A stretch of DNA of 64,000 bases from Candidatus Lustribacter sp. (GTDB taxonomy: Bacteria; Vulcanimicrobiota; Vulcanimicrobiia; Vulcanimicrobiales; Vulcanimicrobiaceae). Where the stretch lies: positions 3,072,001-3,136,000 of the forward strand of contig OZ255842.1 in the NCBI GenBank assembly GCA_965277805.1. The letters run 5' to 3'. Both the position numbers and the translations under genes were made by a program. Positions 2,857-36,511 of this stretch are shown here, one piece after another. The notes beneath the pieces were generated by a model that saw nothing but the letters and a program-made list of their open reading frames with translations, did not search any database and was not told the origin of the DNA. The number at the start of each line of letters is the position of its first letter. The first letter of the stretch is position 1.

Positions 2857-3807
2857 ATGCTCAAGCGTGTCCTGGTGTTTTTCGCAATCATGCTCGGCTG
2901 TTCGCAATTCTCGTTTGCGCAAGGTCCGACAACGATTATCGTTGCGGGCCCGCCCGACGAAGGTTTCAAAGATGTCTACTATGGCGTGCAGTCGGGTTTG
3001 TTCGCGAAATACGGACTCGACGTGCAGCCGCGCATCGTTCACGGCGGCGCGGTCGTACTTGCCGGCTTAGCCGGCGGATCGTATGCGGTCGCGTATACGA
3101 ACATCGTGCCCGTACTGCAAGCGCACGCGCACGGTCTGCCGTTTCAAATCATCGCACCGTCCACGATCTTCATGAGCGAACGGCCGCAGAACGCGATGCT
3201 CGTCGCCAAAGACGCGCCGTTCAAGACGGCGCGCGACCTCAACGGGAAGACGATCGGCACGCAGTCCCTGCAAGATCTCAACTCCGTTTCCATGCGCGCC
3301 TGGATCGATAAGAACGGCGGCGACTCGAACACGCTGCACGTCATCGAAGTGCCTTCACCCTCGGCTGTTTCGGCGCTGACCTCGCACCGCATCGATGCGA
3401 TGGCGCTATCCGAACCGCTGCTCACGATGGCGCTCGAAACCGGACAGGTGCGCATTTTTGCGCGCCCGCAAACCGCCATTTCGGAACGCTTTCAATCGCA
3501 GGTCTTCGTCGCCAACACCGGTTTCGTGTCGGCCAATCCCGAGGCGATGGAGCGATTTGCGAAGGCCATGCACGAGTCTGCCCTCTATAACAACGCCCAT
3601 CTGTCGCAAACCGTGCGCCTCGTTTCGGGCTTTACTTCCGTGCCCGCAGACGTGATCGCACGCACCACCCGTTCGCTCGATGGGGATTACGCGGCTCCCC
3701 GTTTCATCCAGCCAATCATCGATTTCGCGGCCAAGTACGGAATGATTCCGCAAGCGTTCCCGGCCGAAGAAATCATCAGCCCGGCGGCATTGAAAGCCCC
3801 GCGCTGA
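2857..3807 (+). CDS. NitT/TauT (SsuA/THI5-like) ABC substrate-binding protein
   Basis: Signal peptide from ATG 2857; 'DLNGKTIG...WIDKNGGDS' motif shared with the other SBPs here. Confidence 0.85.
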   Translation: MLKRVLVFFAIMLGCSQFSFAQGPTTIIVAGPPDEGFKDVYYGVQSGLFAKYGLDVQPRIVHGGAVVLAGLAGGSYAVAYTNIVPVLQAHAHGLPFQIIAPSTIFMSERPQNAMLVAKDAPFKTARDLNGKTIGTQSLQDLNSVSMRAWIDKNGGDSNTLHVIEVPSPSAVSALTSHRIDAMALSEPLLTMALETGQVRIFARPQTAISERFQSQVFVANTGFVSANPEAMERFAKAMHESALYNNAHLSQTVRLVSGFTSVPADVIARTTRSLDGDYAAPRFIQPIIDFAAKYGMIPQAFPAEEIISPAALKAPR

Positions 3808-3827
3808 TGAGCCGTTAGGAGTTCCCG

Positions 3828-4895
3828 ATGCCAGACATCATCAACTACGAAGTCGCGTGTTTGCAAACGATCACGCGGCAGGTTTCGCTCACCGACGACG
3901 AGCAGCTCGACCGCGACATCCGCGCCAACATCGCGCGCATCTGCGAGCTGATCGACTACGTTACCTCGTTCGGTAACTCCGACGTCAAACTGGTCGTGAC
4001 GCCCGAATACGCCGTCAACGGAAACTTCCGCGTGATCAACCTCGACGCGTGGTGCCGCATCGCGACGACCGTGCCGGGCCCGTACACCGACATCTTCGCC
4101 GAGAAGGCCAAGGCGCGGAAAATCTATCTTGCCGTCAACATGCTCGAAGTGCACCCCGATTTTCCGCGCCGCTTCTTCAACTGCTCGATGCTCTTCGGAC
4201 CCGACGGCAAAATCCTCATCAAGCACTGGAAAAACAATAACAACTGTTGGGTCTTCCCCTACACGACTCCGGCCGACATCTACACCGAGTTCGTGGCGAA
4301 ATTCGGGCGCGAAAACCTCTTCCCGGTCGCCAAAACCGAGATCGGAAATATCGGTTTGATCACCTGCGGCGAGCTCGGGTTCCCGGAAAATGCGCGCTGC
4401 ACGGCGATGAACGGCGCCGAGGTGCTCTGTCATCTTACCTCCGAGCCCAACAACATGAGCCACGGCGATTCCCGCAACTGGAAGGGCCTGCGGACCGCGC
4501 GCGCCTACGAAAACAAGTGCTACCTGGCGGCCGCCAACATCGGTCTTTACGAAGGTGGTCTGCGCGGTTTGCACGATTCCCACGGTGATTCAGCAATCCA
4601 CTATTTCGACGGATCGATCACCAACGAGATCCAGGGGCCGGGCGAGGCGACCATCAAATGCCGCATCAACCTCAACGACTTGCGCCTTTCGAAGACGCGG
4701 CCGTTCCACCCGACCTCGATTCGCGCTCAGCTTTACGCAAAAGAGTACGCGAGCTGGCCGAGCTGGCCGAACGACGGCTTCGCCGAGAAACCGATCGAAA
4801 GCATCGAGGACACCCGCGCGATTTTCCGCGCGCTGGTTAAGGAAAGGCAAGCCCGCGGGATCGATCGCGCGCCGATCGATTTAAACGCTCTCTGA
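3828..4895 (+). CDS. nitrilase-family carbon-nitrogen hydrolase
   Basis: E-K-C triad: 'LVVTPEY', 'IKHWK', 'GLITCGELGFPE'; 'RAYENKCY'; AGGAG RBS. Confidence 0.85.
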   Translation: MPDIINYEVACLQTITRQVSLTDDEQLDRDIRANIARICELIDYVTSFGNSDVKLVVTPEYAVNGNFRVINLDAWCRIATTVPGPYTDIFAEKAKARKIYLAVNMLEVHPDFPRRFFNCSMLFGPDGKILIKHWKNNNNCWVFPYTTPADIYTEFVAKFGRENLFPVAKTEIGNIGLITCGELGFPENARCTAMNGAEVLCHLTSEPNNMSHGDSRNWKGLRTARAYENKCYLAAANIGLYEGGLRGLHDSHGDSAIHYFDGSITNEIQGPGEATIKCRINLNDLRLSKTRPFHPTSIRAQLYAKEYASWPSWPNDGFAEKPIESIEDTRAIFRALVKERQARGIDRAPIDLNAL

Positions 4896-24058: not shown

Positions 24059-24873
24059 CCGTGCCGCTCCCGCTTTTCATCAACGCCGGGGGCATCAAGA
24101 CGCACGTTTACGTAGCGGGTGAAGGCGGCCGCTACCCGGTCGTGTTCGTGCACGGCGGCGGACTCGGGTCCGACTCCCACTCTTGGCTCGGCGCCATGTC
24201 GCAGCTCGCGCGCCGCACCTACGCGTTCGACACGGTCGGCTTTGGCCGCTCCGCGGCGCCCGCGCTGACCTACGACAGCGCGTTGATCGCGCGGCACTTA
24301 CTCGACGTGCTCGACGTACTCTTCCTCGACCGGGCGATTCTCGTCGGCCACTCGCTCGGCGCTACCACCGTCGCGCGGTTCGCCGTCGCGCATCCCGCGC
24401 GCGTGGCGGCCGCGGTGATGGTCGCGCCCGGCGGCGGTTCGGTCGGCCTCAAGTACCACAGCGACGGTCACGCGGCCATGGCCCGCGTTCTCACCGATCC
24501 TTCGTTCGAGAACGTGCGCGCGTTGGCCGCACTGATGCGCGCGAACGACGATCACGCCGACGAAGACGCAGCCCATCGCCTGGAGGTCGCGAGGGCGCCG
24601 GGAGTTCTCGCCGCGCTTCGCGCTTACGGCGCCGCCCCGGCAGCCGGCAGCCTCGAGGAGACGTTGCCGCAGCTCTCGATACCGTTCATGCTGATGTGGG
24701 GCACCGCCGAACGCTTCAACCCGCCGGATCTGGGCGACCGGATCGCCGCCAAGCTCCCCAATCTCACGCGCTATGCGGTCTTCGAAGGTGCGGGCCACTA
24801 CATTCAGTACGATGCACCGGATCGCTTTTGCTCGACCCTATCCAACTTCTTCGATGACGTGGAGGCAGCCTGA
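24055..24873 (+). CDS. alpha/beta fold hydrolase
   Basis: 'VFVHGGG', 'GFGRS', 'GHSLG', 'GAGH'. Confidence 0.88.
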   Translation: MTVPLPLFINAGGIKTHVYVAGEGGRYPVVFVHGGGLGSDSHSWLGAMSQLARRTYAFDTVGFGRSAAPALTYDSALIARHLLDVLDVLFLDRAILVGHSLGATTVARFAVAHPARVAAAVMVAPGGGSVGLKYHSDGHAAMARVLTDPSFENVRALAALMRANDDHADEDAAHRLEVARAPGVLAALRAYGAAPAAGSLEETLPQLSIPFMLMWGTAERFNPPDLGDRIAAKLPNLTRYAVFEGAGHYIQYDAPDRFCSTLSNFFDDVEAA

Positions 24874-25841
24874 TGATCCAAAACCGACGTCACTTCGTTG
24901 CCGGCACCGCAGCGGTGCTGGCCGGTTCGATGATGTCGAACGCCTCGGCCCAAAGCATGACCAACCTCGAGCTGGGAGACGTGTCGAAAACCGCCACCAG
25001 CTGGCCGATGGAAATCGCCCGCGTCAACGGCTTCTTCACCAAGCAAAAGCTCAACATCGACACCACCTACGTCGGCAACAATCCGGGTGTCGCGCAACAG
25101 GTCGTCGGCAGCGCGCTCGACCTCGGGCTCACCACCGTCGAGACGGCGATCCGCGCCGTCGAGAGCGGCGCGCCGATCGTGATGATCTCGAGCGTCATGC
25201 TGAAGTTTCCGTACAACTTCATGGCCGCGACATCGATCAATGCTCCGGCCGACCTCAAAGGCAAGAAGATCATCCTGGATCTGCCGAAAAGCTATCTTTC
25301 CTACACGTGGGCGCGCTGGTCGAAAGCGAATCATCTCCAGCCCGACGACGTCGAAATCGTGTATGACGGCTCCTCCACCAACCGCTTTGCAGCTCTTGTG
25401 GCCGGCGCTGTCCAGCTGGCGCCCGTATTGCAACCGCTCGATCTGATGGCACAAGACCGCGGTTTCAAGAAATTCATCCAGATGAGCATCTTTGCACCGA
25501 ATTTCGGCTTTGACGCGCTCGTCGCGCGCAAGGCCTGGCTGCAAACGAACGGCGCGACCGCACGCGCGTTCATTAAAGCCGCCGCCGATGCCGTCGATTA
25601 CTTTTACGACAAGAAGAATCGGGACGCGTCGATCAATGCGCTCGTCGAGTTCTCGAAGGTCGACGCACCGACGGCCGCCCGCGTGTACGACTACTACGTG
25701 AACGACCTGCACCCGTATGCAAAAGGAATGGCGCTCCCCGACGCGTACGTGAAAACGGTGTCCGATTATCTCGTCGTCTCGGGCGATCTAAAATCCGCCG
25801 GGCCGCCCTCGAAATACGTTGACCATAGCTTCCTTCCTTGA
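24873..25841 (+). CDS. NitT/TauT ABC substrate-binding protein (Tat signal)
   Basis: 'NRRHFV' Tat motif; 'DLKGKKI'; 'RFAALVAG'. Confidence 0.85.
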   Translation: MIQNRRHFVAGTAAVLAGSMMSNASAQSMTNLELGDVSKTATSWPMEIARVNGFFTKQKLNIDTTYVGNNPGVAQQVVGSALDLGLTTVETAIRAVESGAPIVMISSVMLKFPYNFMAATSINAPADLKGKKIILDLPKSYLSYTWARWSKANHLQPDDVEIVYDGSSTNRFAALVAGAVQLAPVLQPLDLMAQDRGFKKFIQMSIFAPNFGFDALVARKAWLQTNGATARAFIKAAADAVDYFYDKKNRDASINALVEFSKVDAPTAARVYDYYVNDLHPYAKGMALPDAYVKTVSDYLVVSGDLKSAGPPSKYVDHSFLP

Positions 25842-26605
25842 ATAAAGTCGCGGTTGCACGCGGCACCGTTTCCTTCGCCGCTGCCATCGCCGGTTGGGAA
25901 CTGATCGCGCGTTTCGCGGTCCATAATTCGCTGTTTCTCGCCGGCCCGATCGCCGTCGCTCAAAAGAGCGTCGAACTCTGGGGCACCGGCGAGTTACAGA
26001 AAAATCTGCTGACGAGCTGGAGCGAATTCGCGATCGGTTTCGCGCTCTCGGCCGTCGTCGGAATCGGCGTAGGCGTCTTGCTCGCGCACTCGCAAAAGGC
26101 ACGGCACTACATCGACCCCTGGGTGTCGATGCTCTACGCGACCCCGCTGATCGCGCTCGGGCCCGTCTTCATCCTGTGGCTCGGCATCGGCCTGACCGCG
26201 AAGGTCGCGGTCATTTTCCTCACCGCGGTGTTTCCAATTTTGCTCAACACGGTCTCCGGGTTGCGCGAAACCGATCCGCAACTAGTGGAAGTGGCGTACT
26301 CGTTCGGCGGCAACGAATCGCAAGTTTACCGTTTCATTCGTTTCCCGGCAGCGCTGCCGTTCATCATCGTCGGTTTGCGTCTGGGGATCGCCCGTGCGCT
26401 CGTCGGCATTGTGGTCGCGGAATTCTTCGGCGCTCGCGCGGGGGTCGGGTTCATGATCCTCACATCGGCGCAAACGTTCGATACGGCGTCGGTCTTCCTG
26501 GGCGTGATTATCCTCGCGATCGCCGGCGTCGGCAGCACCGAGTTCCTCAAGTGGCTCGAGATGCGGCTCGCGCCTTGGCGCTATTCGATCGGCCAACCAG
26601 AATAG
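25838..26605 (+). CDS. NitT/TauT ABC permease
   Basis: Multiple TM helices; 'YATPLIALGP', 'EVAYSFGG', 'PAALPFI', 'VVAEFFG'. Confidence 0.9.
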   Translation: MNKVAVARGTVSFAAAIAGWELIARFAVHNSLFLAGPIAVAQKSVELWGTGELQKNLLTSWSEFAIGFALSAVVGIGVGVLLAHSQKARHYIDPWVSMLYATPLIALGPVFILWLGIGLTAKVAVIFLTAVFPILLNTVSGLRETDPQLVEVAYSFGGNESQVYRFIRFPAALPFIIVGLRLGIARALVGIVVAEFFGARAGVGFMILTSAQTFDTASVFLGVIILAIAGVGSTEFLKWLEMRLAPWRYSIGQPE

Positions 26606-26643
26606 CGCCAAGGCGATAACCACGAGGAGCGTGTCGAAGGGTG

Positions 26644-27033
26644 TCAGTTGTCGAAGTCAACTTCGAACAGATACGACCCGGGGGTCGCAGTGCAGTTCTG
26701 AACGGCGGGGCTGAACTTGCTGGCGCGAGCGGCGTCGAGCGCAGCACGGTCGAGCACGCCGTAGCCGGATGATTTCGCGACCTCAGCACCGATGAGGTTG
26801 CCGGAGGCATCGATATCAACCTGAACCAGCGTTTTGCCGGCGAGGTGGAATTGGTTGGCGATGTCGGGCCGGTCGGCAACCGCGGCGTACGTGGTCGCTG
26901 CTTGAACGTTCGGAACGCTGCAGCCCGGGGCGTCAACGCCCTGTGCGCCGGCGGGAGTGATGCCGGCCGCCAGCGGCGCGACCGCAAAAAACGCGGCGAC
27001 CGTCAAACGGGCAAACGTGGTAGACGTATTCAC
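26644..27033 (-). CDS. small secreted TonB C-terminal-domain protein
   Basis: AGGAG RBS; signal peptide; 'VQVDIDASG....VAKSSGYGVLDRAALDAARASKFSPA'. Confidence 0.8.
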   Translation of the reverse strand: MNTSTTFARLTVAAFFAVAPLAAGITPAGAQGVDAPGCSVPNVQAATTYAAVADRPDIANQFHLAGKTLVQVDIDASGNLIGAEVAKSSGYGVLDRAALDAARASKFSPAVQNCTATPGSYLFEVDFDN

Positions 27034-27213
27034 GATATGGCTCTCCTGTTACGGCCACGCAAATGCGGGCCTGAGGAGAGACTAGTCAGCCGCGGTAAAA
27101 AGCCGGTTACTGCCCACTTGTACGGATAAGACGTACGGATGAGCGTGTTCGCGCTCGCCCGCTAATTGCAAAATTGCGTTAACCCCCTCGTAACCAAAAG
27201 CGAGTTAACGCAC

Positions 27214-27966
27214 ATGATCGCAGTAGCACCGGCGCCCGCGTCTCCACTCTACGATAACGATCGGATCGAAGTCCGGATCCTCGACGGGACGACGTTCTTC
27301 GGCGGCCGCGAGATCAAGCTCACCGACCGCGAGTTCGCCATCCTTGCGGCGATGGCGCTGAACCGTCAGGCCCTCAACCGCGATGAGTGGTGCGATAAGC
27401 TCTGGCCGGATCGCGATGCGGATTCCGCCGCCAGCCTCCTCAAAGTCTACGTCCACCGGATACGCGCCAAATTCGGCACGGCTGGGATCATCGAAACCCA
27501 GGGCAACGGCTACCGCCTCGGGCGGCACGTCGCGATCGACGTCCACCGGTTCGAGGAGATAGCGCGCCGGCACGACGTTTCGCACGACCCGCTCGGCGGC
27601 GACGTGTTCGCGATCGTCGCGGGGGCATTCGAGAGCATCAAGGACCGCCTCTACCGTCGCATCGCCTCGCTCGAATATTACGAAGAACTGGAGCGCCGTT
27701 TCGTCGCGATCGGAGTCGAACTCGCGCGCCTTCTCGTGCACGACGCCTTCCTGCGCGGTGACACGGCGTACGCAGCACGCATTGCGGAAGAGCTGGTCTC
27801 CCTCGATCCCTACGACGACGTCGCGGCGGAACTGTTCATCCGCGCGCAGTTGCTGCTCGGCCGCCAGGATGCGGCGGCGCGCCATTTTCGCACCTTCTGC
27901 CGGACGCTGCGTGACGAACTCGACGTGCCGCCGCCGGCCCACCTCACGCAGCTGTTCGCGCGATGA
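27214..27966 (+). CDS. winged-helix + BTAD-like transcriptional activator (SARP-like, no ATPase)
   Basis: 'LTDREFAIL', 'LWPD..LKVYVHRIRAK..IET..NGYRL', 'DPYDD', 'LRDELDVPPP'. Confidence 0.8.
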   Translation: MIAVAPAPASPLYDNDRIEVRILDGTTFFGGREIKLTDREFAILAAMALNRQALNRDEWCDKLWPDRDADSAASLLKVYVHRIRAKFGTAGIIETQGNGYRLGRHVAIDVHRFEEIARRHDVSHDPLGGDVFAIVAGAFESIKDRLYRRIASLEYYEELERRFVAIGVELARLLVHDAFLRGDTAYAARIAEELVSLDPYDDVAAELFIRAQLLLGRQDAAARHFRTFCRTLRDELDVPPPAHLTQLFAR

Positions 27967-28108
27967 ACCCGGCCGATGCCATGTATCTCCTTCGCCTTGC
28001 GGCGTTCCTCGCGGCATGCGCTTGGGGGAGTGTCAGCCCCCTCGCCCGTAATCGTACGCGGGACAAGCAGTAGCCGATTGTCCCTCATTCTCGTTTGGGG
28101 GAAATGCG

Positions 28109-30331
28109 CTGAGCAGCGACGCCAGGTCCGGCGTAATCGATGGCGCTCCAGCCTTCGGGCCGCTATTGCGCCGCTTGCGAATTGCCGCCGGCCTCTCGCA
28201 AGAGGCCCTCGCCGAGCGTGCGCGGATCAGCACCGAAGCGGTCGGCTCGCTGGAACGCGGCTCGCGCCGTGCGCCGCAGCGCCAAACGCTGGCGCTGCTG
28301 ATCGATGCGCTGCGGGTCGAGGGCGAGGAACGCATCAGGCTCGAGCAGGCCGCGATTCGACCGTCGTTGCCGCGCCGGCGCGAAAGTGGCCCGAGCGTGG
28401 CCGGCGTGGCCTCCGCATTGCGTCTGCCGGCACCGCTGACGTCGTTCGTCGGACGCGGACGCGATCTGCACGTCCTCGAAGCGGCGATCTCCGGCGCGCG
28501 CCTGGTTTCGCTCGTCGGCCCGGGCGGTGTCGGCAAGAGCCGGCTCGCACTCGAGGCGGCGCGGCGATCCGGGGACCGTTTCGCAGACGGCGTGGTGCTC
28601 GTCGAACTGGCCCCGATTGCAGCCGGAGCGTCGGTAGTCAGCGCGTTCGCAACCGCGCTAGGCGTCGCCGACGAGGGCGAGATACGGCTGCTCGACCGCG
28701 TCGTCGCGGCTTGCCGTGCGGGGCACCGGCTCATTATCGCCGACAATTGCGAGCACGTGCTCGATGCGTGCGCCGAAGTCGTGCTCGCATTGCTGAGCGT
28801 TTGTCCAAACGTGCGCGTGATGGCGACGAGCCGTGAGCCGTTGCGCGTAGTGGGCGAACACATTCTGCGGCTCGGCCCGCTTGAACCCGAAGCGGCGCTG
28901 CAGCTCTTCATCGACCGCGCCAAAGCGGTTGCGCCGCACCTGCGCTTCGAACCGGACGAATTGGAGGTTGCCGCACAAATTTGCGGCCGCGTCGACGGGA
29001 TTCCGCTGGCGATCGAATTGGCCGCCTCGCGGGCCGACATCTTCGACCTCGAAACGATACTCGCCCGGCTGCGCGAACGCTTCAAGCTGCTCTCGGTCGG
29101 ATCTCGCACCACGCTTCCGCACCATCGGACACTGCGCGCGCTCGTCGACTGGAGTCACGAACTGCTCGACCCCGACGAAGCGCGGCTGTTCGGGCGCCTC
29201 GGAATCTTTGCCGGCGGCGGCCGGTTCGATGACGTGGAGCGAATTCTCGCCTTCGACGGGATCGAACCGGGTCCCATCTGGGAATTCCTCGCCCGGCTGC
29301 ATGCCAAGTCGCTCGTCGATGTCGACCGCGCTAATCCGCCGCGCTTCTCAATGCTGCAGACGATTCACGATTACGCCCGGGAACGACTCGCCGGCACCAA
29401 CGAAATCGCCCAACTCGAGCACCGGTTTGCGACGCATTTTCTTGAGTTGGTGATTGCGTCCGGCCCGGCACTGCGCAGCGCTCTCCAAGGCGAAACGATC
29501 GACCGTCTGTCGGCGGAAGTGGACAACATTCGTTCCGCCTTGACGCTGAGCGGCGGAAATCCGGCGCTGCACGAACTAGGCTTACGAGCGCTGGGGCCAC
29601 TCGCATTTTATTGGATGCGCACGGGCGCGTTAACCGAGGCATCGACGCGCATCGAGTCGCTCACCAAAGATGCGCGGAAACCGACGCTCGGCGTCGCTTG
29701 GGCATGCGCCGGCGGCGCGTTCATCGAGTTCAACCGGGCGCGCTTTCCCGAGGGAAACGCCTATGCCGCGCGGGCCCACGAAGCCGCGCAGGCGTGCGGC
29801 GATGAGTGGGTGAGCATCTACGCTTCGTTAGCCGTCTGTTGGGGACGTTCGCGCGCCGGCGAGAGTCCGGATGCAGCGGTTCTCGACGCCTACGAACGCG
29901 CGCAACGCCTCGGCGATCCCTGGCTCATCGTGTCAGCCGCCTTTGAGTTGGGCGGAGCGGCGCTCGCGCGAAATGACCGCGCGAGTGCGACGGACCGTTT
30001 TTCCGAAGCTCTCGAAAGCGCGCGAACGATCGGCGACAAGTTCATGGTGTCGTCGTCGGCGGTGCAACTCGGACGTTTGCTCGCAGAAAATGAACCGGTC
30101 AAAGCCGCCCGGCTGATCGGCGATGCCATCGAAAACCTAGCGCCGAGCGCCGTCCGGGCACGTTCGGTGTGCATGGACGCACTGGCGCCGATCGCGCTTG
30201 CGTTCGATCGGCCGGATGATGCCGCCCGGATAACGGAAACCGCGAGCACCCTCCGGCTGACGGCCGGCGGCGGATCGTCGCTTGCCGAAGCAAACGACGC
30301 CGTTCACTCATTCTTGTCCGCCCTGAACTAG
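28109..30331 (+). CDS. XRE-HTH + NB-ARC (STAND) ATPase + TPR-like regulator; start uncertain (CTG 28109 or TTG 28166)
   Basis: 'FGPLLRRLRIAAGLSQEALAERA..ERG', 'LTSFVGR', Walker A 'GPGGVGKS', 'DNCEH', 'DGIPLAIELAA', 'DWSHELL'. Confidence 0.85.
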   Translation: MSSDARSGVIDGAPAFGPLLRRLRIAAGLSQEALAERARISTEAVGSLERGSRRAPQRQTLALLIDALRVEGEERIRLEQAAIRPSLPRRRESGPSVAGVASALRLPAPLTSFVGRGRDLHVLEAAISGARLVSLVGPGGVGKSRLALEAARRSGDRFADGVVLVELAPIAAGASVVSAFATALGVADEGEIRLLDRVVAACRAGHRLIIADNCEHVLDACAEVVLALLSVCPNVRVMATSREPLRVVGEHILRLGPLEPEAALQLFIDRAKAVAPHLRFEPDELEVAAQICGRVDGIPLAIELAASRADIFDLETILARLRERFKLLSVGSRTTLPHHRTLRALVDWSHELLDPDEARLFGRLGIFAGGGRFDDVERILAFDGIEPGPIWEFLARLHAKSLVDVDRANPPRFSMLQTIHDYARERLAGTNEIAQLEHRFATHFLELVIASGPALRSALQGETIDRLSAEVDNIRSALTLSGGNPALHELGLRALGPLAFYWMRTGALTEASTRIESLTKDARKPTLGVAWACAGGAFIEFNRARFPEGNAYAARAHEAAQACGDEWVSIYASLAVCWGRSRAGESPDAAVLDAYERAQRLGDPWLIVSAAFELGGAALARNDRASATDRFSEALESARTIGDKFMVSSSAVQLGRLLAENEPVKAARLIGDAIENLAPSAVRARSVCMDALAPIALAFDRPDDAARITETASTLRLTAGGGSSLAEANDAVHSFLSALN

Positions 30332-30333
30332 CC

Positions 30334-30591
30334 TCAGGGATGCGTGATGACGTTAACGATTTGAAAATTGCCCGGCGGGGGCTTATCGCCTACAACGATC
30401 ATGCTTGCGGCCAGCGTCATGATGTTCTGGACGTCCCCGGGTTGGACGAGATTCTGCGGCATGACCGTTTCGTTGATGAGGTTGGCTATTTTCTCGTTGC
30501 TGCTTCCCGCGCCGGCTAATGCTTCGCGTACCCGTGGGTTCGTCGCCAGATGACCGACCCAGCTGCGGGTGATTTGATCGATGTCTGTCAT
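30334..30591 (-). CDS. 85-aa small protein; candidate precursor/substrate of the YcaO-TfuA pair
   Basis: AAGGAG RBS overlapping the ycaO stop, 8-nt gap; protein-like composition. The precursor role is inference. Confidence 0.7.
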   Translation of the reverse strand: MTDIDQITRSWVGHLATNPRVREALAGAGSSNEKIANLINETVMPQNLVQPGDVQNIMTLAASMIVVGDKPPPGNFQIVNVITHP

Positions 30592-30599
30592 GGTGCTCC

Positions 30600-31871
30600 T
30601 TAGAACGTAGGGACTGGAACGAGGTTGAGAATGGCGCGGACCGCCGGTCCGTACGTATTGCCGGACGCGGGAGTTTCAAGGCGTGGCGCAACGGCCCGCA
30701 CGACGTAGAGGGGAAGGTCCGTCGGGGAAAGATCGACGAGCGCGACTGGTCCGGCGTTCGCGGCGCGCAATGCGGCGACGAGCACACCCACGTCTAGCGC
30801 TACGTCGCTCGTCGATCGATCGGCGAACGAACTTAGCGCGCGCGCGGGGGCCGGCGCATCGTAGAACCAGCGCCCCGACGGAACGCCGAACGTGCGCCGA
30901 ATGCCGTAATCAGGAACGTTCGCGTCATCGTGACGGCACAGATCTTCGCGCGCGCCCAAAAAGTCGGAAGCGCGCGCTTGAGCGGCTTCGGTGAGGGCGC
31001 GGATCGCGGCATGCTCGGGCGACAACGAGCAGCCGGCGCCGCTGTGCGCCGCGGATTCACCGCCCGCGTGGTCGGCGATCGTCGCTAAGACAAGAAGCGG
31101 AAATGGATCGACCTCCAGCGCGCGTAGCCGGCACGACAGGCCCGCCGAACGGATCCGATCGATGAGCGCATCCACCATCGCGAACCCGGAGGGCACCTCG
31201 ATATCCGAAGCGATCGGGTCATCGATGAACCCGGGGATCGATCCGGTTCCGCCGGTAAAGCGCGAGACGATCGCCCGCGGACGAAGATATCCCCGGGCGT
31301 GTCCAACCGCCCAAAGATGGCGCTCGGCCAGCTCCGTCACCGCATGGTAAACGGCTTCGGCATACGTGTTTCCGCTCGCCAGTCCGTTGGACGAGTCGCC
31401 GAAGATGACGCGTTCACCATGCCACGGACACTGCACGAGAGCGAGCGGGACGTCAAGCGCATCGCCTGTGAGCAAATCCGTCCCAGCGACGCAGACGATC
31501 TCTTCCGCCGGCGGCGGCGGCCAGTGGCCGCCGGGATCGATTGCGGCCAGCACGGTCTTGGCATCGCGCACGAACGCCGGCAAACGCGGCGCAGCCGCGA
31601 CCTGCCGTTCAACGGCTTCCATCACCGCTCCGGCGAGCGCGCTCTCGCGCGTCGGTCCCTTGCCGTTGTAGACGCTGATGACGTCCGGTGAGCCGGGGGC
31701 GATCGCGCTCATTACCGGAATGCCGATTCGATCGAGGTGCGTGATGTCGGCGATGCGCGTGATGCCGAAGCGCTCGCGCAGTTGCGGAATCAGCGCGAGC
31801 GTTTGTTCCACCGGCACGCAGCGGTCGAACGAACCCGGCGCTTTCGGAGCGCAACGCACAAGCTCAAGCAA
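30600..31871 (-). CDS. ycaO: YcaO family ATP-dependent amide-backbone activating enzyme (TfuA-associated type); start TTG 31871 or GTG 31859
   Basis: 'GITRIADITHLDRIGIPV', 'YNGKG...GAVMEAVER', 'SNGLASGN...ELAERH', 'RALTEAAQAR...GAREDL'. Confidence 0.92.
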   Translation of the reverse strand: MLELVRCAPKAPGSFDRCVPVEQTLALIPQLRERFGITRIADITHLDRIGIPVMSAIAPGSPDVISVYNGKGPTRESALAGAVMEAVERQVAAAPRLPAFVRDAKTVLAAIDPGGHWPPPPAEEIVCVAGTDLLTGDALDVPLALVQCPWHGERVIFGDSSNGLASGNTYAEAVYHAVTELAERHLWAVGHARGYLRPRAIVSRFTGGTGSIPGFIDDPIASDIEVPSGFAMVDALIDRIRSAGLSCRLRALEVDPFPLLVLATIADHAGGESAAHSGAGCSLSPEHAAIRALTEAAQARASDFLGAREDLCRHDDANVPDYGIRRTFGVPSGRWFYDAPAPARALSSFADRSTSDVALDVGVLVAALRAANAGPVALVDLSPTDLPLYVVRAVAPRLETPASGNTYGPAVRAILNLVPVPTF

Positions 31872-32499
31872 CGGCGCCCACCCGGGTACGTGCGCGCAAC
31901 ACGCGGCGCAACGCAAAGCGCGCATCCCAGCGCTTGAGATCGCCTTCGCGACGTGCGATGTCGAGCAGTGCGGATTGGGCCGCCGCCGGCGCACAGGCTA
32001 CGGCGCCCGGCCAAGATCGTTCGGCGTAGTAGATCGTCGTGCGCGCTTCGTGGATCCAGTCGCGAGCCGCGGTACCATCGAGGATCCCGCGGCGAAGGGC
32101 GAGCCACGCAACGTAGCGGACGTTCACCGACGGAACGCTCAAGGGGGCGTGCGTTTGCGGATGCATCGCGACCGCGACCTCGTCGTCGCCGTCGATCGCA
32201 CCGCTTTCGTACCAGCGCGCGATCGCGCCCAGCGCAACGGCGCCGTAGGGACGGCATTCAACGGCGCGTAGCGCGCCCATACTGGCAGCACCGTAGAGCC
32301 GCACGCGGCGCGCTGCGGCGAGAACTTCTTTCGGCGTCGGCGCGAGTTCGTGGTGAAAGACGCCATCCAGCAGCAAAACGGCACCGAACGTTTCGGCCGC
32401 ACGCGCGACGTCACCGCGCGCTGCCGGCGGCGCGTACGTGACTCCGGGAAGCATGAGCCGGTCGGCGGGCGGCAACGACGGGCCAGCAAAAACACAGAT
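31864..32499 (-). CDS. tfuA: TfuA-like protein (start codon problematic, see findings)
   Basis: 'VFAGPSL', 'PPAARGD', 'LLDGVF...PTPKEV', 'GAASMGALRAVE', 'DDEVAV', 'PLSVPSVNVR', 'YYAERSW', 'DLKRWDA'. Confidence 0.9.
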   Translation of the reverse strand: MCVFAGPSLPPADRLMLPGVTYAPPAARGDVARAAETFGAVLLLDGVFHHELAPTPKEVLAAARRVRLYGAASMGALRAVECRPYGAVALGAIARWYESGAIDGDDEVAVAMHPQTHAPLSVPSVNVRYVAWLALRRGILDGTAARDWIHEARTTIYYAERSWPGAVACAPAAAQSALLDIARREGDLKRWDARFALRRVLRARTRVGAVA

Positions 32500-32700
32500 G
32501 CGTTCTAGAAACGCATCGTCGGCGTCTTCGTCGAAAGCTCTGATTTCGATGCGTCCGGTGTTCTCGCGCTCCGCTGGATCGCCTTCATGCTTTGGGCCGC
32601 CGCAGCACCGAAAGATTCGCCCTTATCAGCCGCCGCCGGCCCGGCTACGATGGGATCGAGAGACAGCGTATCTCTCTGTCTTTTCCAAGAAAGCAAGACC

Positions 32701-33027
32701 ATGCAGAAGTACATTTTTGCGGTCGCACTCGCAGCCGCCGTTGGGGCGCCGGCCATTGCCTCCGCGCAGACCGCCCCGGTGAGCGTGACGACGATCGTCT
32801 GCCGCACGCCGAACGCGGGCGAAACGGCGACCGCGAACATCCAAAACGCGCCGGTTGTGTGCCACGTAATCAATGTGGAGAAAATCCGTACGGCGATGAA
32901 CGCCGTGATGAATTCGAACCTGAGCACCGATCAAAAGGCGAAAATGCAAACGGCGATGACGGTCCTTAGAGACGAACTGCAGCTCGAACCGACATATCCG
33001 GGCTTCAACGGCAACCCGAATAACTGA
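32701..33027 (+). CDS. secreted hypothetical protein
   Basis: Signal peptide MQKYIFAVALAAAVGAPAIASA; two Cys; no family recognised. Confidence 0.7.
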   Translation: MQKYIFAVALAAAVGAPAIASAQTAPVSVTTIVCRTPNAGETATANIQNAPVVCHVINVEKIRTAMNAVMNSNLSTDQKAKMQTAMTVLRDELQLEPTYPGFNGNPNN

Positions 33028-33048
33028 CGCAGCCCGCGCGCACAAGCG

Positions 33049-33077
33049 AGCAGCGGCCCCCGAGGGTGACCGCTGCT
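33049..33077. terminator. hairpin between convergent genes (possible bidirectional terminator)
   Basis: 8-bp stem AGCAGCGG...CCGCTGCT. Confidence 0.45.
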
Positions 33078-34069
33078 TATTTGCCGCCGGGATTCGTGAT
33101 CAGTGAGGCAATCGAGACGGTGACGGCGCCGGTGCGTGCTAACGCGCGGCCCGTGAATTGCGTGGCCGAGGTTAGCGTGACCGAATCCAACGCGAGAACA
33201 TTGCCGGAGAACGACTGGGCGCCGAGGATTGCCGAACTGCCGACTTGCCAGTAGATGTTGCACGCGTTGGCGCCGTTGATCAGGTTCACGTTGCCGCTGT
33301 TCGTTCCGTTGAGCGTCGTGGTGAGCGTGCTCCCGGCTTGAAAAATGAAGACGCTCTGCGCGTTGCCGCCGCCGTCGAGCGTCAGATTTCCGGCCAAGAT
33401 GCTCATCGATGAAGCCGACTTATAAACGCCCGGAGGTAACGTGCCGGTCGGGTGGCCGGGCACGCTGGCCTGCGAAAGATCTTGTCCGCCGGGGAACGTC
33501 ACGGTCGACGCCACGCCGGCAAAGTTGTTATACGCGACGGTCAAGGCGCTTTGGGCCGCGAGCGTGACGGCCGGCTGATTGCTGTATCCGGCGCCGATAG
33601 CGTAGATGGCGGCGGGACCGTCGGCATCCGTACCCGGCGGATAGAATCCAACCACGGCAGTCCCGGGCGACACGCCGATCAGATCGTCATTCAAACTTCC
33701 GGTGGTCGCACCGGGCGCATACGTCACATTGGTCAAGCCGGTGTTCGTAATCGTCGAACCGGCTAGCAATGCGAACGGCGTCAGCGCCGTTCCGAGCGCC
33801 AACGCTCCGGCGCCTTGACTGCACGCAACGGCGGGAACAAACGGTACGGTTGTGGGTACCGTCGTCGGAGCCGTCGTCGGCACACCGCCCGGCCCCGTCG
33901 TTGGAAATGTCGTCGGAGCGGTCGTGGGAACTCCGACGGGACCCGCCGCTGCGCCGGCGGTAAAGCCGGGGACGTTGCAGTTACACGCGCCGCACGCGGC
34001 CAGCGACAAGACGGAAGCGAGCGCTGCGAACCGCTGCGGTTTTTTGAACATGTTGCTCATCCTCATCAC
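33077..34069 (-). CDS. DUF3494 ice-binding lipoprotein with Pro/Thr-rich linker
   Basis: Lipobox 'LAAC'; PTT repeats; 'FALLAGSTITNTG', 'PGVY', 'LTLDGGG..VFIFQAGSTLTT', 'NIYWQVGSSA', 'GRALA'. Confidence 0.9.
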   Translation of the reverse strand: MMRMSNMFKKPQRFAALASVLSLAACGACNCNVPGFTAGAAAGPVGVPTTAPTTFPTTGPGGVPTTAPTTVPTTVPFVPAVACSQGAGALALGTALTPFALLAGSTITNTGLTNVTYAPGATTGSLNDDLIGVSPGTAVVGFYPPGTDADGPAAIYAIGAGYSNQPAVTLAAQSALTVAYNNFAGVASTVTFPGGQDLSQASVPGHPTGTLPPGVYKSASSMSILAGNLTLDGGGNAQSVFIFQAGSTLTTTLNGTNSGNVNLINGANACNIYWQVGSSAILGAQSFSGNVLALDSVTLTSATQFTGRALARTGAVTVSIASLITNPGGK

Positions 34070-34071
34070 GG

Positions 34072-35366
34072 CTAGATCTTCACGCCGAGACCGATATACG
34101 GGCCGTCATGGATCTGACCAATCGGTGCGTTTTTGGTCGCGGCGTAATGATCGCCGCTGAATCCGCCAAAGAGATAGACCGGCGAGTGCGCGATGACGAG
34201 CGCGACGCCGATATCGTATTTGATGATTTGATACTGCTGTTGATAGCTGGTGCCGGCGTTGGGGCTCGCCGCATTGCTGACGGTATACGTGCCCGAGGCA
34301 CTCGGATAATAGAATGCGGAACCGTAGAAGCTCAGCCCGGGCCGTAGATCCGGTAGCTTTTCGAGCCCAACGCCGACCGCGTTCAAGTTCGGATAGCCGT
34401 AGTTGTTGGCGTCGTGAAGGTAGGCTACGCCGGCGTAGATGCGCGGCTTCAGGACTTGATATTCCAGCCGGATGTCGAGGCTGGTTTGGCGCGCCATGAA
34501 CACCGGTGTGAATGCCGTTCCGCCGTCGATGGTCGCAAATTGCGTGTAGTGATTGCCGATTCCATCAACGGCGTTGCTGCTCGTGACGTAGGCGTCTTGC
34601 CGGAAATCGGCTTTGAGCGCGATGGGTGAATTCTGCGGCGCGAAGGCGGCGTTGAAGATGAACGTATCGCAATACGTTCCGGCCACGAACTCGTTGTAAT
34701 TCTTCGGCGTCGAGTACGCGGCTTGGAGGAAGGCCGTATACGAGGGTTCGAGCGGCACGGGAGTAGGCGGCACGGCGATCGCGACGGGCAGCGTAACGGC
34801 CGCGGACGGCTTCGGTGTGACGACCGGAGTCGCGGTGGGTACGACGACCGGCGGCGCGCTCGGAGGCGGCGGCGCGGGCAACGCGATGTAGCGTACGACG
34901 ACGACGCGCCGCTCCGGGACCCATTGCACGTAGGCGCCCATCGCTTCGGAAATCACGCGCACCGGAACGAGAACCACGCCCTTGTAGAGCATCGGCGGCA
35001 CGTCGAGCGCGCGCGACTCGCCGTTGATGATGACTTCGTTTTTGCCTAACGTGACCGAGACGCTCGACCCCGGCTTCGCTGCGGTGATGGTTTTGCCGTC
35101 CGCCGAAACCGAGACGCTTGCGCCCATCTGTTCGAACATGCTACGTAACGGCACGTAAATCTCGCCGTCTTTAACGAGCGCGGCCAGCACGCGCGCCTGC
35201 TCGAGCAAGTCGGGCTTGGCATAGACGGTGTGGTCGTTGAAGAGGATCGGAACTTCAGCGGCCGGCGGGCTACCGAAGTCGGCCGCTCGCGCGCCGGCGC
35301 CGCTTAAGAGCAGCGCAGCAAAAGAGACGCTTACCGCAACGAATTGCGTGAGAGCCGTGCTCGCAT
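34072..35366 (-). CDS. copper amine oxidase N-terminal-domain protein with C-terminal beta-barrel-like region; apparent frameshift just after ATG 35366
   Basis: 'DFGSPPAAEVPILFNDHTVYAKPD', 'YVPLRSMFEQMGA', 'VPVRVISEAMGAYVQW', Pro-rich linker, C-terminus 'GPYIGLGVKI'. Confidence 0.75.
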
Positions 35367-35473
35367 AGCAGAAGCCTTCCCATAGAGCAAAGGCCCTACG
35401 ATTTGGATGGACGGGCTAGCGGTACGGCAGTACTGCGTCCGTTATAGTACCAAATTACCCGGGAAAGCCATAC

Positions 35474-36427
35474 CTAAACGGCACTATACATTATATCGGA
35501 CGCCGGGAACGGCGCGAACTTCGCGTACTTTGCCGTCACGTCGATCCACGGTTGGAGTTCGGCCGCGATCAGCCGGTCCGAAAAATAGGTCCGGTTGGAT
35601 TGCGCGATGACGGCCGGATCGCCGTGCAGGTCCTTCGCCAGAATCGGTATCGTCTTCGCCGGATTCGCGTTGGCCCAACGTCCGGCATCGCGCATCGCCG
35701 AGACAAAACGCGCGACGAGATCGGGATGCGCTTTGGCCCAGGGGGCGGTGGCGAACCAGACCGTCGCGAGATAACTCGTCCCCAGTGCGTCGTCCGGATA
35801 CACGAACGAGCGAACCGTTCCCGACTTCAGCGCGGTCGTTAAAAACGGTTCGACCATGTACGCCGCGTCCACGCGGCCCGAGGTGAGCGCGTCGGCCTCG
35901 AGCGGAAACGGAATCTCGACGAACTTCACCGTCGATGAATCGCCGCCGTGTTTATCCATCCACGCGCGCGGCAGGAACTCGCCGATCGTTCCGAGCCCCG
36001 GCGTCGCAAACGTCTTGCCGTTGAAATCCGCCGCTGTTTTCGCGGTCGAAGTGTTCGCGACCATGATGCTGCCGACAATTTTTCCCGGTTGCCAGCCGGC
36101 GCCGGGCGCGATGCAGACGAACGGCAAGCCGCGCACGTGCGCGACGGCGATCGTCGAGATGTTTGCGAACGCCGCGATGTCGTAGGTGCCGGCCGCGACG
36201 GCAGCGACGATCGCGGGCGTCGATGCGTTTTGCGTGATCTCGACGTTCAAGCCGGCCTTGCTGAAGTAGCCGTTTTCGCTGGCATAATAGATCAATGCGG
36301 CAGGCTCGTTCGGAATCATCGCCGCGTGAACAAGCGGCATCGTCTGCGCTTGCGCCGGCGCGGCGCACCACGGGAACGCAGCTGTCGCGGCCAAGCCCTG
36401 AACGACGCGTAAGCGGGTGACTGCCAT
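35474..36427 (-). CDS. NitT/TauT ABC substrate-binding protein
   Basis: 'DFNGKTFATPGL...WMDKHGGDSSTVKFVEIPF'. Confidence 0.85.
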   Translation of the reverse strand: MAVTRLRVVQGLAATAAFPWCAAPAQAQTMPLVHAAMIPNEPAALIYYASENGYFSKAGLNVEITQNASTPAIVAAVAAGTYDIAAFANISTIAVAHVRGLPFVCIAPGAGWQPGKIVGSIMVANTSTAKTAADFNGKTFATPGLGTIGEFLPRAWMDKHGGDSSTVKFVEIPFPLEADALTSGRVDAAYMVEPFLTTALKSGTVRSFVYPDDALGTSYLATVWFATAPWAKAHPDLVARFVSAMRDAGRWANANPAKTIPILAKDLHGDPAVIAQSNRTYFSDRLIAAELQPWIDVTAKYAKFAPFPASDIMYSAV

Positions 36428-36511
36428 AACATCGCCTCCTGCGGCATTGCACCGAGAGTGCGCGCGTTGGCCAAGTGGGTATACGCGCCCTGCAGAGAGG
36501 GAGGATCGTTT

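Follow-up and report, generated by a model that had tools for sequence, protein, structure and literature searches.

A candidate TfuA-YcaO thioamide-peptide cassette with a new family of precursor-like proteins in Candidatus Lustribacter

Gene clusters in which a YcaO enzyme and its partner TfuA accompany the gene of a precursor are a known kind of system among the ribosomally synthesized peptides with post-translational modifications (RiPPs). According to passages of the survey by Malit et al. 2021 (PMC8120280), such TfuA-related clusters occur in thousands and comprise 613 gene-cluster families and 797 putative precursor families, some of them Nif11-like; the taxa named in these passages are Proteobacteria, Actinobacteria, Cyanobacteria, Acidobacteria, Firmicutes and archaea. 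Here we describe a candidate cassette of this kind in a 64,000-nt window of the genome of Candidatus Lustribacter sp., a bacterium of soil type from Eremiobacterota, a phylum still little known (assembly GCA_965277805.1, contig OZ255842.1, positions 3,072,001 to 3,136,000; "window" refers to this whole stretch). Between 30334 and approximately 32499 of the window, three coupled genes on the minus strand follow each other in the order tfuA, ycaO and an open reading frame (ORF) for 85 aa. The window's own genome (G000; 5.53 Mb, single contig) was compared with its congeners G001, G002 and G003 and with other relatives; those of its relatives which carry a name are metagenome-assembled genomes (MAGs) of Candidatus Eremiobacterota.

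The minimal set of precursor, YcaO and TfuA is known from thiovarsolin of Streptomyces varsoviensis (VarA, the YcaO VarY and the TfuA VarT). Passages of PMC6511847 describe a precursor with an adjacent YcaO-TfuA pair as the minimal working unit, report that varA, varY and varT alone yield a thioamidated product, and show that a dedicated protease or exporter is not required; by this likeness, the product expected from the window would be a linear backbone-thioamidated peptide. In contrast to the window, VarA has a repetitive, APR-containing core and its cluster harbours the heme-oxygenase-like VarO, neither of which was found here. The candidate precursor of the window carries a single tail in which we detected no repeats, has an unrelated four-helix leader, comes from a different phylum and stands beside a pair of STAND and SARP regulators. 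The TfuA-related clusters with Nif11-like precursors share with our locus the YcaO-TfuA pair and a long helical leader of the Nif11 type, and passages of PMC8120280 present their products as uncharacterised. The precursors described there match the Nif11 model, end in a GG cleavage motif and are accompanied by dedicated transporters or radical-SAM enzymes, whereas the protein of the window is missed by TIGR03798, resembles Nif11 at the profile level only and has no linked transporter.

By sequence, the closest solved structures belong to the archaeal pair which modifies a glycine of McrA (MJ1094, PDB 6pe3/6peu; TfuA, 6xp8), and the reaction is presumably the same. However, the enzymes of the window score well below the cut-offs of the corresponding equivalog models, their presumed substrate is a dedicated small protein instead of McrA, and the YcaO has an extra loop predicted to hold the leader. 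Thioamitides of the thioviridamide type are comparable in that YcaO and TfuA install backbone thioamides in a hydrophobic stretch of a ribosomal peptide. Their machinery for aminovinyl-cysteine (AviCys) formation, consisting of an HFCD-type flavin-dependent decarboxylase and a kinase/lyase, and other tailoring genes are missing from nine ORFs scanned around the cassette, and the precursor is unrelated.

A reading made earlier from the sequence alone had proposed a candidate new thioamide system. The cassette is real and is a well-supported candidate for thioamide-peptide formation; the implied novelty is too high, the kind of system being already known and not categorically new. What characterises the clusters called 'TfuA-related' by antiSMASH is present here, namely an intact YcaO, an adjacent TfuA and a co-located gene for a presumed substrate with a conserved leader and a variable core. 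New are the precursor family and a hypervariable block of YcaO, precursor and regulator within a background of 94-99 % identity. Our literature search revealed no paper pairing 'TfuA' with 'Eremiobacter', with the limit that the supplementary tables of PMC8120280 and PMC6511847, which lay outside the search, might list the family; on biosynthetic gene clusters or RiPPs of Eremiobacterota it returned general surveys only.

The cassette consists of the following features (window coordinates):

31864 to 32499, minus strand: tfuA, about 211 aa if translated from ATC at 32497-32499; matches PF07812, NF033432 and PDB 6xp8

30600 to 31871, minus strand: ycaO, 423 aa from TTG at 31871; matches PF02624, TIGR00702 and MJ1094

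30596 to 30601, minus strand: AAGGAG, ribosome binding site of the small gene, overlapping the ycaO stop codon; read directly

30334 to 30591, minus strand: precursor-like small gene, 85 aa plus stop; founding member of an unannotated family

30400 to 30591, minus strand: leader domain, residues 1-64, with four predicted helices and the conserved motifs SRSWVGHLATNPxVR ... LINETV.P ... DV..I

30337 to 30399, minus strand: variable tail, residues 65-85 (VGDKPPPGNFQIVNVITHP region); presumed core and thioamidation site

All three tightly coupled genes are present as the sequence-only reading had described them, including the motifs GAASMGALRAVE and DDEVAV in the TfuA translation, the motifs GKG..MEAVER, SNGLASG..ELAERH and TEAAQAR..GAREDL in the YcaO translation, and the overlap of the ribosome binding site with the ycaO stop (TAA, 30600-30602), 8 nt past which the small ORF begins with ATG (30589-30591). 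As to the proposed extent of 30334 to 32516, the gene set is correct and the end is not, position 32516 belonging to an out-of-frame ATG which meets a stop after three codons. Searches with hidden Markov models, suggested as a check, identified both enzymes over the full length of the profiles: TfuA matches PF07812 with an E-value of 8.8e-30 (103.4 bits, cut-off 30; profile positions 1-119 of 119) and YcaO matches PF02624 with 2.7e-46 (158.9 bits, cut-off 25.7; positions 1-325 of 325). YcaO also exceeds the cut-off of the YcaO kinase domain model TIGR00702 (147.7 versus 75.65 bits). Both proteins stay below the equivalog models for McrA-glycine thioamidation (YcaO, 170.4 bits against 365 for TIGR03266; TfuA, 134.7 bits against 235.2 for NF033432), and YcaO obtains 20.3 bits with the S12/YcaO model NF040716 (cut-off 700). 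Among solved structures, YcaO is closest to the thioamide-forming MJ1094 of M. jannaschii (6pe3; 1.7e-24), followed by the M. kandleri YcaO (4.3e-9) and the azoline-forming TruD (6.5e-5), while the closest solved relative of TfuA is 6xp8 (7.2e-27).

The ATP/Mg-binding motifs of the YcaO, which is the sole YcaO of the genome, are intact and align to those of MJ1094. Its residues 190-232 span positions 183-202 of MJ1094, that is, approximately 23 residues are extra and have no aligned counterpart there. The likely start of ycaO is the TTG at 31871, which overlaps the tfuA stop (31864-31866) by 8 nt and, when the gene is aligned to its G001 and G002 orthologues, falls opposite their ATG. Many YcaO relatives with 46-48 % identity (among P0081-P0136) are YcaO-TfuA fusions of 575-657 aa containing both PF02624 and PF07812, and functional coupling of the two proteins is therefore supported. 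No dehydratase, decarboxylase, E1/ThiF, dehydrogenase, protease or transporter domain was detected in the nine neighbouring ORFs scanned (26644-35208), in agreement with the earlier statement on the adjacent genes. The mismatch to the layouts of the thioviridamide, thiopeptin and methyl-coenzyme M reductase (MCR) systems was upheld by Pfam and NCBIfam scans of the neighbours and the gene products.

The 85-aa protein has no match in Pfam (E<=0.01) or NCBIfam (E<=10), and a search in a protein atlas gave no usable match. A word-indexed search revealed two metagenome homologues with 76-78 % identity, and a profile built from six sequences and run against 1.84 billion representatives resulted in 38 matches at E<=0.001, 25 of them at E<=1e-10. 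Of these matches, 33 are small proteins (56-106 aa), and five long ones (572-3622 aa) with scattered short stretches of similarity were set aside. Alignment A2 has 34 rows, comprising 30 of the 33 small matches together with the window's protein, P0002, the G001 copy and P0003 (query sequence); the truncated P0014 and P0038 were excluded. Judged by this alignment, the ORF is a member of a rare, unannotated family of 83-106 aa with a conserved N-terminal domain and a variable tail of approximately 21 aa, whose proteins are hypothetical or unnamed in all sources. Conservation covers roughly the first 65 residues: G13 and R22 do not vary at all, and H14, T17, A36, I39, N40, D53 and I57 are almost invariant. 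The tails (last 20 or so residues) are hypervariable, with 26 % Gly+Pro versus 10 % in the leaders, often contain a short hydrophobic stretch such as IVNVI, and have a Cys in one case out of 34. The window's protein has G-D after the last helix and ends in THP.

AlphaFold2 with A2 predicted four helices (residues 4-17, 19-28, 32-43 and 51-64) with a block-wise predicted local distance difference test (pLDDT) of 89-96 for residues 1-60, and a tail without secondary structure at pLDDT 55-70. As modelled, the protein is built like a precursor, its leader being folded and conserved and its tail disordered and variable. We also considered a ThiS/MoaD-like sulfur carrier and rejected it, since the model is all-helical and not a beta-grasp fold and a C-terminal GG is not conserved; two ThiS-family genes are located elsewhere in the genome.

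The small ORF accompanies homologues of the YcaO and TfuA genes in other genomes, a behaviour which the earlier reading had singled out for a neighbourhood check. It occurs in three of the seven other genomes of the genus, which are exactly the three with a YcaO: G001, G002 and G003 have the layout TfuA-YcaO-small, convergent with a STAND regulator. When 41 relatives, the own genome included, were searched for a YcaO homologue at E<=1e-10, 11 had one, and in nine of these a family member lies within approximately 4.5 kb of it. Altogether, a family member was found in 13 Eremiobacterota genomes, with a YcaO within approximately 4.5 kb in 12 of them and, in 11 of these 12, a TfuA in the fetched DNA. 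The gene order varies and the linkage persists: besides TfuA-YcaO-small we found small-YcaO-TfuA in G285 and G200, where it is divergent from a BTAD-NB-ARC-TPR regulator, and TfuA-small with YcaO some 3 kb away in G025, G026, G027 and G029. In three of the latter, the g19 loci (G026, G027, G029), an opposite-strand LuxR-AAA regulator gene lies between TfuA-small and YcaO. In G023 the regulator is divergent from small-YcaO, and in G283 (L035, G283:C8) two family members in tandem (3477-4606) come after TfuA-YcaO, with a cyclase-STAND protein encoded convergently. The second of these tandem members is a weak match (E 0.003), and the tails of both are long and hydrophobic, with HPP or GHGG as their last residues.

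In metagenomes, one scan (alignment A4) found no relative and a second (alignment A1) found one contig of 1093 nt with the same layout as the window; further, in seven pairs of small protein and YcaO the largest contigs are of identical size, which is merely a proxy for co-location. Because the small ORF has syntenic homologues in other genomes, the cassette is more than a chance arrangement. In G021 (L033, G021:C12, 4088-6315), a family member is divergent from a B12-binding radical-SAM gene, with a gene for a sedolisin-type (Pro-kumamolisin) protease nearby; neither YcaO nor TfuA was found in the 12 kb fetched, nor a YcaO in the genome with this YcaO query. It seems that a maturase of a second type makes use of this leader family here, and leader families shared by different maturases are typical of RiPPs.

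Modelling of the complex between YcaO (alignment A6, 91 rows) and the small protein (A2) gave ipSAE values of 0.67, 0.66 and 0.68, compared to 0.00 for the best of three controls, with a partner pLDDT of at least 74 and a contact agreement between runs of at least 44 %. In the calibration of the modelling tool, 58 of 80 solved complexes and 2 of 110 mismatched pairs attained this mark, figures which are rough for the present case, where own alignments were used. The confident contacts connect residues 12-26 of the small protein, the most conserved motif of the family, with YcaO residues 198-219, a stretch located in the segment without MJ1094 counterpart. The model supports a putative binding of the leader to YcaO.

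The leader also faintly resembles Nif11-type leaders. For comparison we assembled Nif11-like leaders from other Eremiobacterota (30 loci with 21 sequences, 15 after removal of near-duplicates). Aligned to these 15 with hhalign, A2 obtained a probability of 64.5 %, an E-value of 6.3e-5 and a score of 28.6 over 50 columns; as controls, the template in reverse gave 9.1, and the highest score among 40 column-shuffled templates was 12.8. Among the 34 family members, two weakly match TIGR03798 (best E 0.0031) and one matches an NHLP-clan model (0.01), and GG or GA follows the last helix in some members only. The similarity of the profiles is therefore remote but non-random, with membership in the Nif11 family unproven.

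On the other side of the small gene, two putative regulators are encoded on the plus strand, and comparison with G003 delimited a block of high divergence:

28166 to 30331, plus strand: STAND-type regulator (HTH_XRE, NB-ARC/AAA ATPase, TPR-like C-terminus), convergent with the cassette; its stop is 2 nt from that of the small gene

27166 to 27966, plus strand: SARP-like regulator (winged helix and BTAD; Trans_reg_C 5.1e-11, BTAD 1.8e-9), preceding the STAND gene

about 28300 to 32000, both strands taken together: hypervariable block, 61-80 % nucleotide identity to G003

The STAND protein matches HTH_3 (9.6e-10), AAA_22 (6.1e-7) and NB-ARC (1.4e-5). A STAND ATPase adjoins the small gene in every locus with scanned neighbours, and its output domain varies, being HTH_XRE in the window and SARP/BTAD, LuxR or a cyclase elsewhere. 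SARP-like genes are located beside the cassette in G001-G003, and in other genera the SARP module is fused to the STAND protein (BTAD-NB-ARC in L032, L033 and L034). We infer a regulatory role of both proteins. The best NCBIfam matches of the STAND regulator lie far below the cut-offs, namely HaaT (56 versus 1125 bits) and FxSxx_TPR (39.6 versus 300 bits), which are NB-ARC/TPR proteins of two other RiPP systems (cyclophane RiPPs and FxSxx-COOH, respectively). A defence-system function was considered and dropped; PADLOC gave weak HTH matches only. The stops of the small gene and the STAND gene are 2 nt apart in the window (30331-30336) and 2-19 nt apart in G001-G003 and L036. This spacing is so tight that there is no room for a terminator and therefore the convergent transcripts would overlap.

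Among the congeners, G003 alone has flanks nearly identical to those of the window, at 94-96 % in probes of 1.5 kb. Compared to it, the regions 24485-28300 and 32050-36494 show mostly 94-99 % nucleotide identity, while within the block, which in the alignment reaches from about 28385 to 31900, the high divergence is interrupted only by a section of 150 nt with 92 % identity (from 31617, 5' part of ycaO), and 30229-30417 around the tail of the small gene cannot be aligned. At the protein level the identity to G003 is 92 % for SARP, 90-91 % for TfuA, 67 % for STAND, 68-69 % for YcaO and 46-47 % for the small protein; within STAND, the HTH is 100 % identical and the C-terminal part 25-60 %. The YcaO of the window is equally far from that of G003 (68 %) and from those of the distant congeners G001 and G002 (69 %), whereas the identity of TfuA follows the relatedness of the genomes (90 % to G003 versus 77-78 % to G001 and G002). 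It follows that YcaO, the presumed substrate and the sensor half of the regulator were exchanged or diversified as a unit within a conserved locus. The pattern fits a recognition between leader and YcaO, but hitch-hiking of a recombined block would produce the same pattern. One may speculate, although we give this idea a small chance, that YcaO, precursor and the STAND sensor half form 'specificity groups', in which the thioamidated peptide or protein would be a self-made signal for the neighbouring HTH-NB-ARC-TPR regulator. In analogy to the agr and comQXP pherotypes, this trio may diversify together and the generic sulfur-delivery partner TfuA not. In the G003 MAG (L003/L018), ycaO has a frame change near codon 27, and the flanking genes for the ice-binding-like and the Cu-amine-oxidase-N proteins are each split into two ORFs. 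Since G003 is a MAG with several split flanking genes, these are probably assembly errors and not pseudogenes.

The beginning of tfuA deserves a separate description. The ORF listing gave a 203-aa tfuA starting at TTG 32475, which would drop the conserved VFAGPSL motif, and upstream of this N-terminus the frame contains no ATG, GTG or TTG. The GTG start of tfuA in G001 and G002 corresponds to ATC (32497-32499) in the window and in G003; presumably, tfuA starts near 32499 at this non-canonical codon. At the same position there is a further element:

32497 to 32517, minus strand: inverted repeat with perfect arms of 8 bp (GATGCGTT and AACGCATC, separated by 5 nt) and, behind it, the T-run TGTGTTTTTG; the ATC presumed to start tfuA lies at the end of its 3' arm

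G003 has the repeat as well, with one G-U-compatible change; G001 and G002, which have the GTG starts, lack it. It could be an attenuator or operator. Terminator-like elements in the region are at chance level (three found, 3.2 expected), and the promoter scan found no sigma-70-like site.

Taken together, the locus is probably a RiPP-type thioamide module of four to five genes, comprising tfuA, ycaO, the precursor gene and the STAND regulator with its SARP partner. The 85-aa product would be the substrate, as the sequence-only reading had proposed; linkage, leader/tail anatomy and predicted docking on YcaO support this proposal, a support which is not of a biochemical nature. The folded four-helix domain (residues 1-64) would serve as leader and dock on the variable YcaO loop at approximately 198-219, YcaO with ATP would activate at least one backbone amide of the flexible C-terminal tail (approximately 21 residues), and TfuA would bring in sulfide, whose source is probably one of the two carriers of the ThiS type with genes elsewhere in the genome, resulting in backbone thioamides. 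This chemistry is suggested by analogy to established TfuA-YcaO pairs, and the placement of the modification in the tail is likewise presumed. According to passages of PMC13063428, outside of high-sulfide habitats ThiS homologues and TfuA tend to deliver sulfide to thioamide-forming YcaOs. Cys in only one of 34 tails means that thiazoline formation cannot be the shared reaction.

Several observations weigh against the module as proposed. Two relatives, G016 and G018 (72 % complete), have a YcaO homologue and no family member detectable by profile search, the profile search found the family in only nine of the 401 genomes sampled from the phylum, and in G023 no TfuA was seen within 1.5 kb downstream of small-YcaO. 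The curated Nif11 (TIGR03798) and NHLP models do not match the window's protein at E<=10, and Foldseek with the small-protein model found nothing in the PDB at E<=0.001 (best 1.9). In the complex model, the tail residues 68-85 are not confidently placed in the active site. A conserved leader protease or exporter was not found in any locus with scanned neighbours, and the C39 peptidase domain (PF03412) has no match in the genome. In public runs, the locus is matched by contigs from a single sample, which are of low depth and unrecorded kind and are uninformative on RNA. Last but not least, tfuA has no canonical start before its conserved N-terminus and therefore the TfuA-YcaO pair may be poorly expressed or impaired here.

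Some of these observations lead to alternative explanations. The lack of a conserved protease or transporter in the loci, and of a C39 domain in the genome, means that an intact, intracellular thioamidated protein is a live alternative to a cleaved peptide. The chemistry would then be the same and the product would be the whole 85-aa protein, for example a ligand or partner of the STAND regulator, which accompanies the gene wherever neighbours were scanned. The compact, confidently predicted fold of the N-terminal domain is in line with this, and modification of whole proteins is established for McrA (PMC5589413) and, in passages of PMC13063428, for uL16. However, the tail is hypervariable like RiPP cores, tandem paralogues exist, a radical-SAM gene adjoins one member, and thiovarsolin likewise has no dedicated protease and exporter according to passages of PMC6511847 and PMC8120280, so that we regard a whole-protein product as unlikely. 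In addition, the remote likeness is to leaders of the Nif11 type, which are cleaved. On the other hand, the model shows the helical domain bound to YcaO and does not place the tail in the active site. The small protein could be an accessory of YcaO, for instance a chaperone, an inhibitor or an adaptor for specificity, and the true substrate, possibly a housekeeping protein, would be encoded elsewhere. There is one YcaO only in the genome, and passages of PMC13063428 describe uL16-modifying YcaOs in other bacteria. But the same passages describe YcaOs of the uL16 type as lacking a nearby TfuA, which is adjacent here; the cassette itself is accessory, with a YcaO in four of the eight genomes of the genus; the S12/YcaO model stays at 20 bits against a cut-off of 700; and neither would a hypervariable disordered tail be expected of an adaptor nor is the all-helical protein, with its non-conserved C-terminal GG, a ThiS-like carrier. 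We consider this accessory role very unlikely. The least probable explanation, for which we see hardly any room, is that YcaO catalyses another ATP-dependent backbone reaction on the tail, leading to an azoline or amidine, and TfuA is incidental. The YcaO superfamily catalyses several reactions and includes amidine-forming examples (10.1101/2020.05.04.076059), yet 11 of the 12 YcaO-linked loci have an adjacent or overlapping TfuA, no solved structure is closer than that of the thioamide-forming MJ1094, Cys is as rare in the tails as stated above, and neither an E1/Ocin-ThiF partner nor a dehydrogenase is located nearby.

The unusual beginning of tfuA raises another point, which concerns this particular genome: the cassette could be silent or decaying in G000, the GTG start having been lost to ATC and a hairpin covering the start codon. 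Besides this codon change relative to G001 and G002, the inverted repeat with its T-run and the lack of RNA evidence from the public-run contigs carrying the locus are compatible with such a state. Nevertheless, none of the three reading frames is interrupted, TfuA shares 91 % identity with the copy in G003 and keeps its N-terminal motif in frame upstream of any canonical start, and terminator-like elements are no more frequent than by chance. Further, ATC and ATT starts in bacteria are rare, yet functional. A silent or decaying cassette thus appears quite unlikely to us.

If the proposed thioamide module is true, a new precursor family and a barely cultured phylum join the thioamidated peptides. 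To our knowledge, it is still an open question how TfuA-dependent YcaOs without a recognised leader-binding domain, the RiPP recognition element (RRE), choose their substrates. The compact three-gene system suits this question, the contact between the leader motif and the lineage-specific loop being directly testable, and the allelic hypervariability of the block of enzyme, substrate and regulator is a natural experiment on specificity. The value of the locus is that of a lead for natural-product research and enzymology and not of a new biological principle.

As to the surroundings, one public-run contig of 13,456 nt spans 27000-34200 of the window with zero differences; it possibly stems from the same source as the assembly and hence is not independent. 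The flank upstream of tfuA (32701-35208), which lies outside of the cassette, encodes two secreted proteins, one of 108 aa without family match and one that is ice-binding-like (PF11999, 5.1e-40), as well as a protein with a Cu_amine_oxidN1 domain. The 108-aa protein (32701-33027) was considered as an alternative substrate and rejected, being kept only in G003 with its identical flank and not beside the cassettes of G001 and G002. In G003, the genes of this flank are 94-98 % identical to those of the window.

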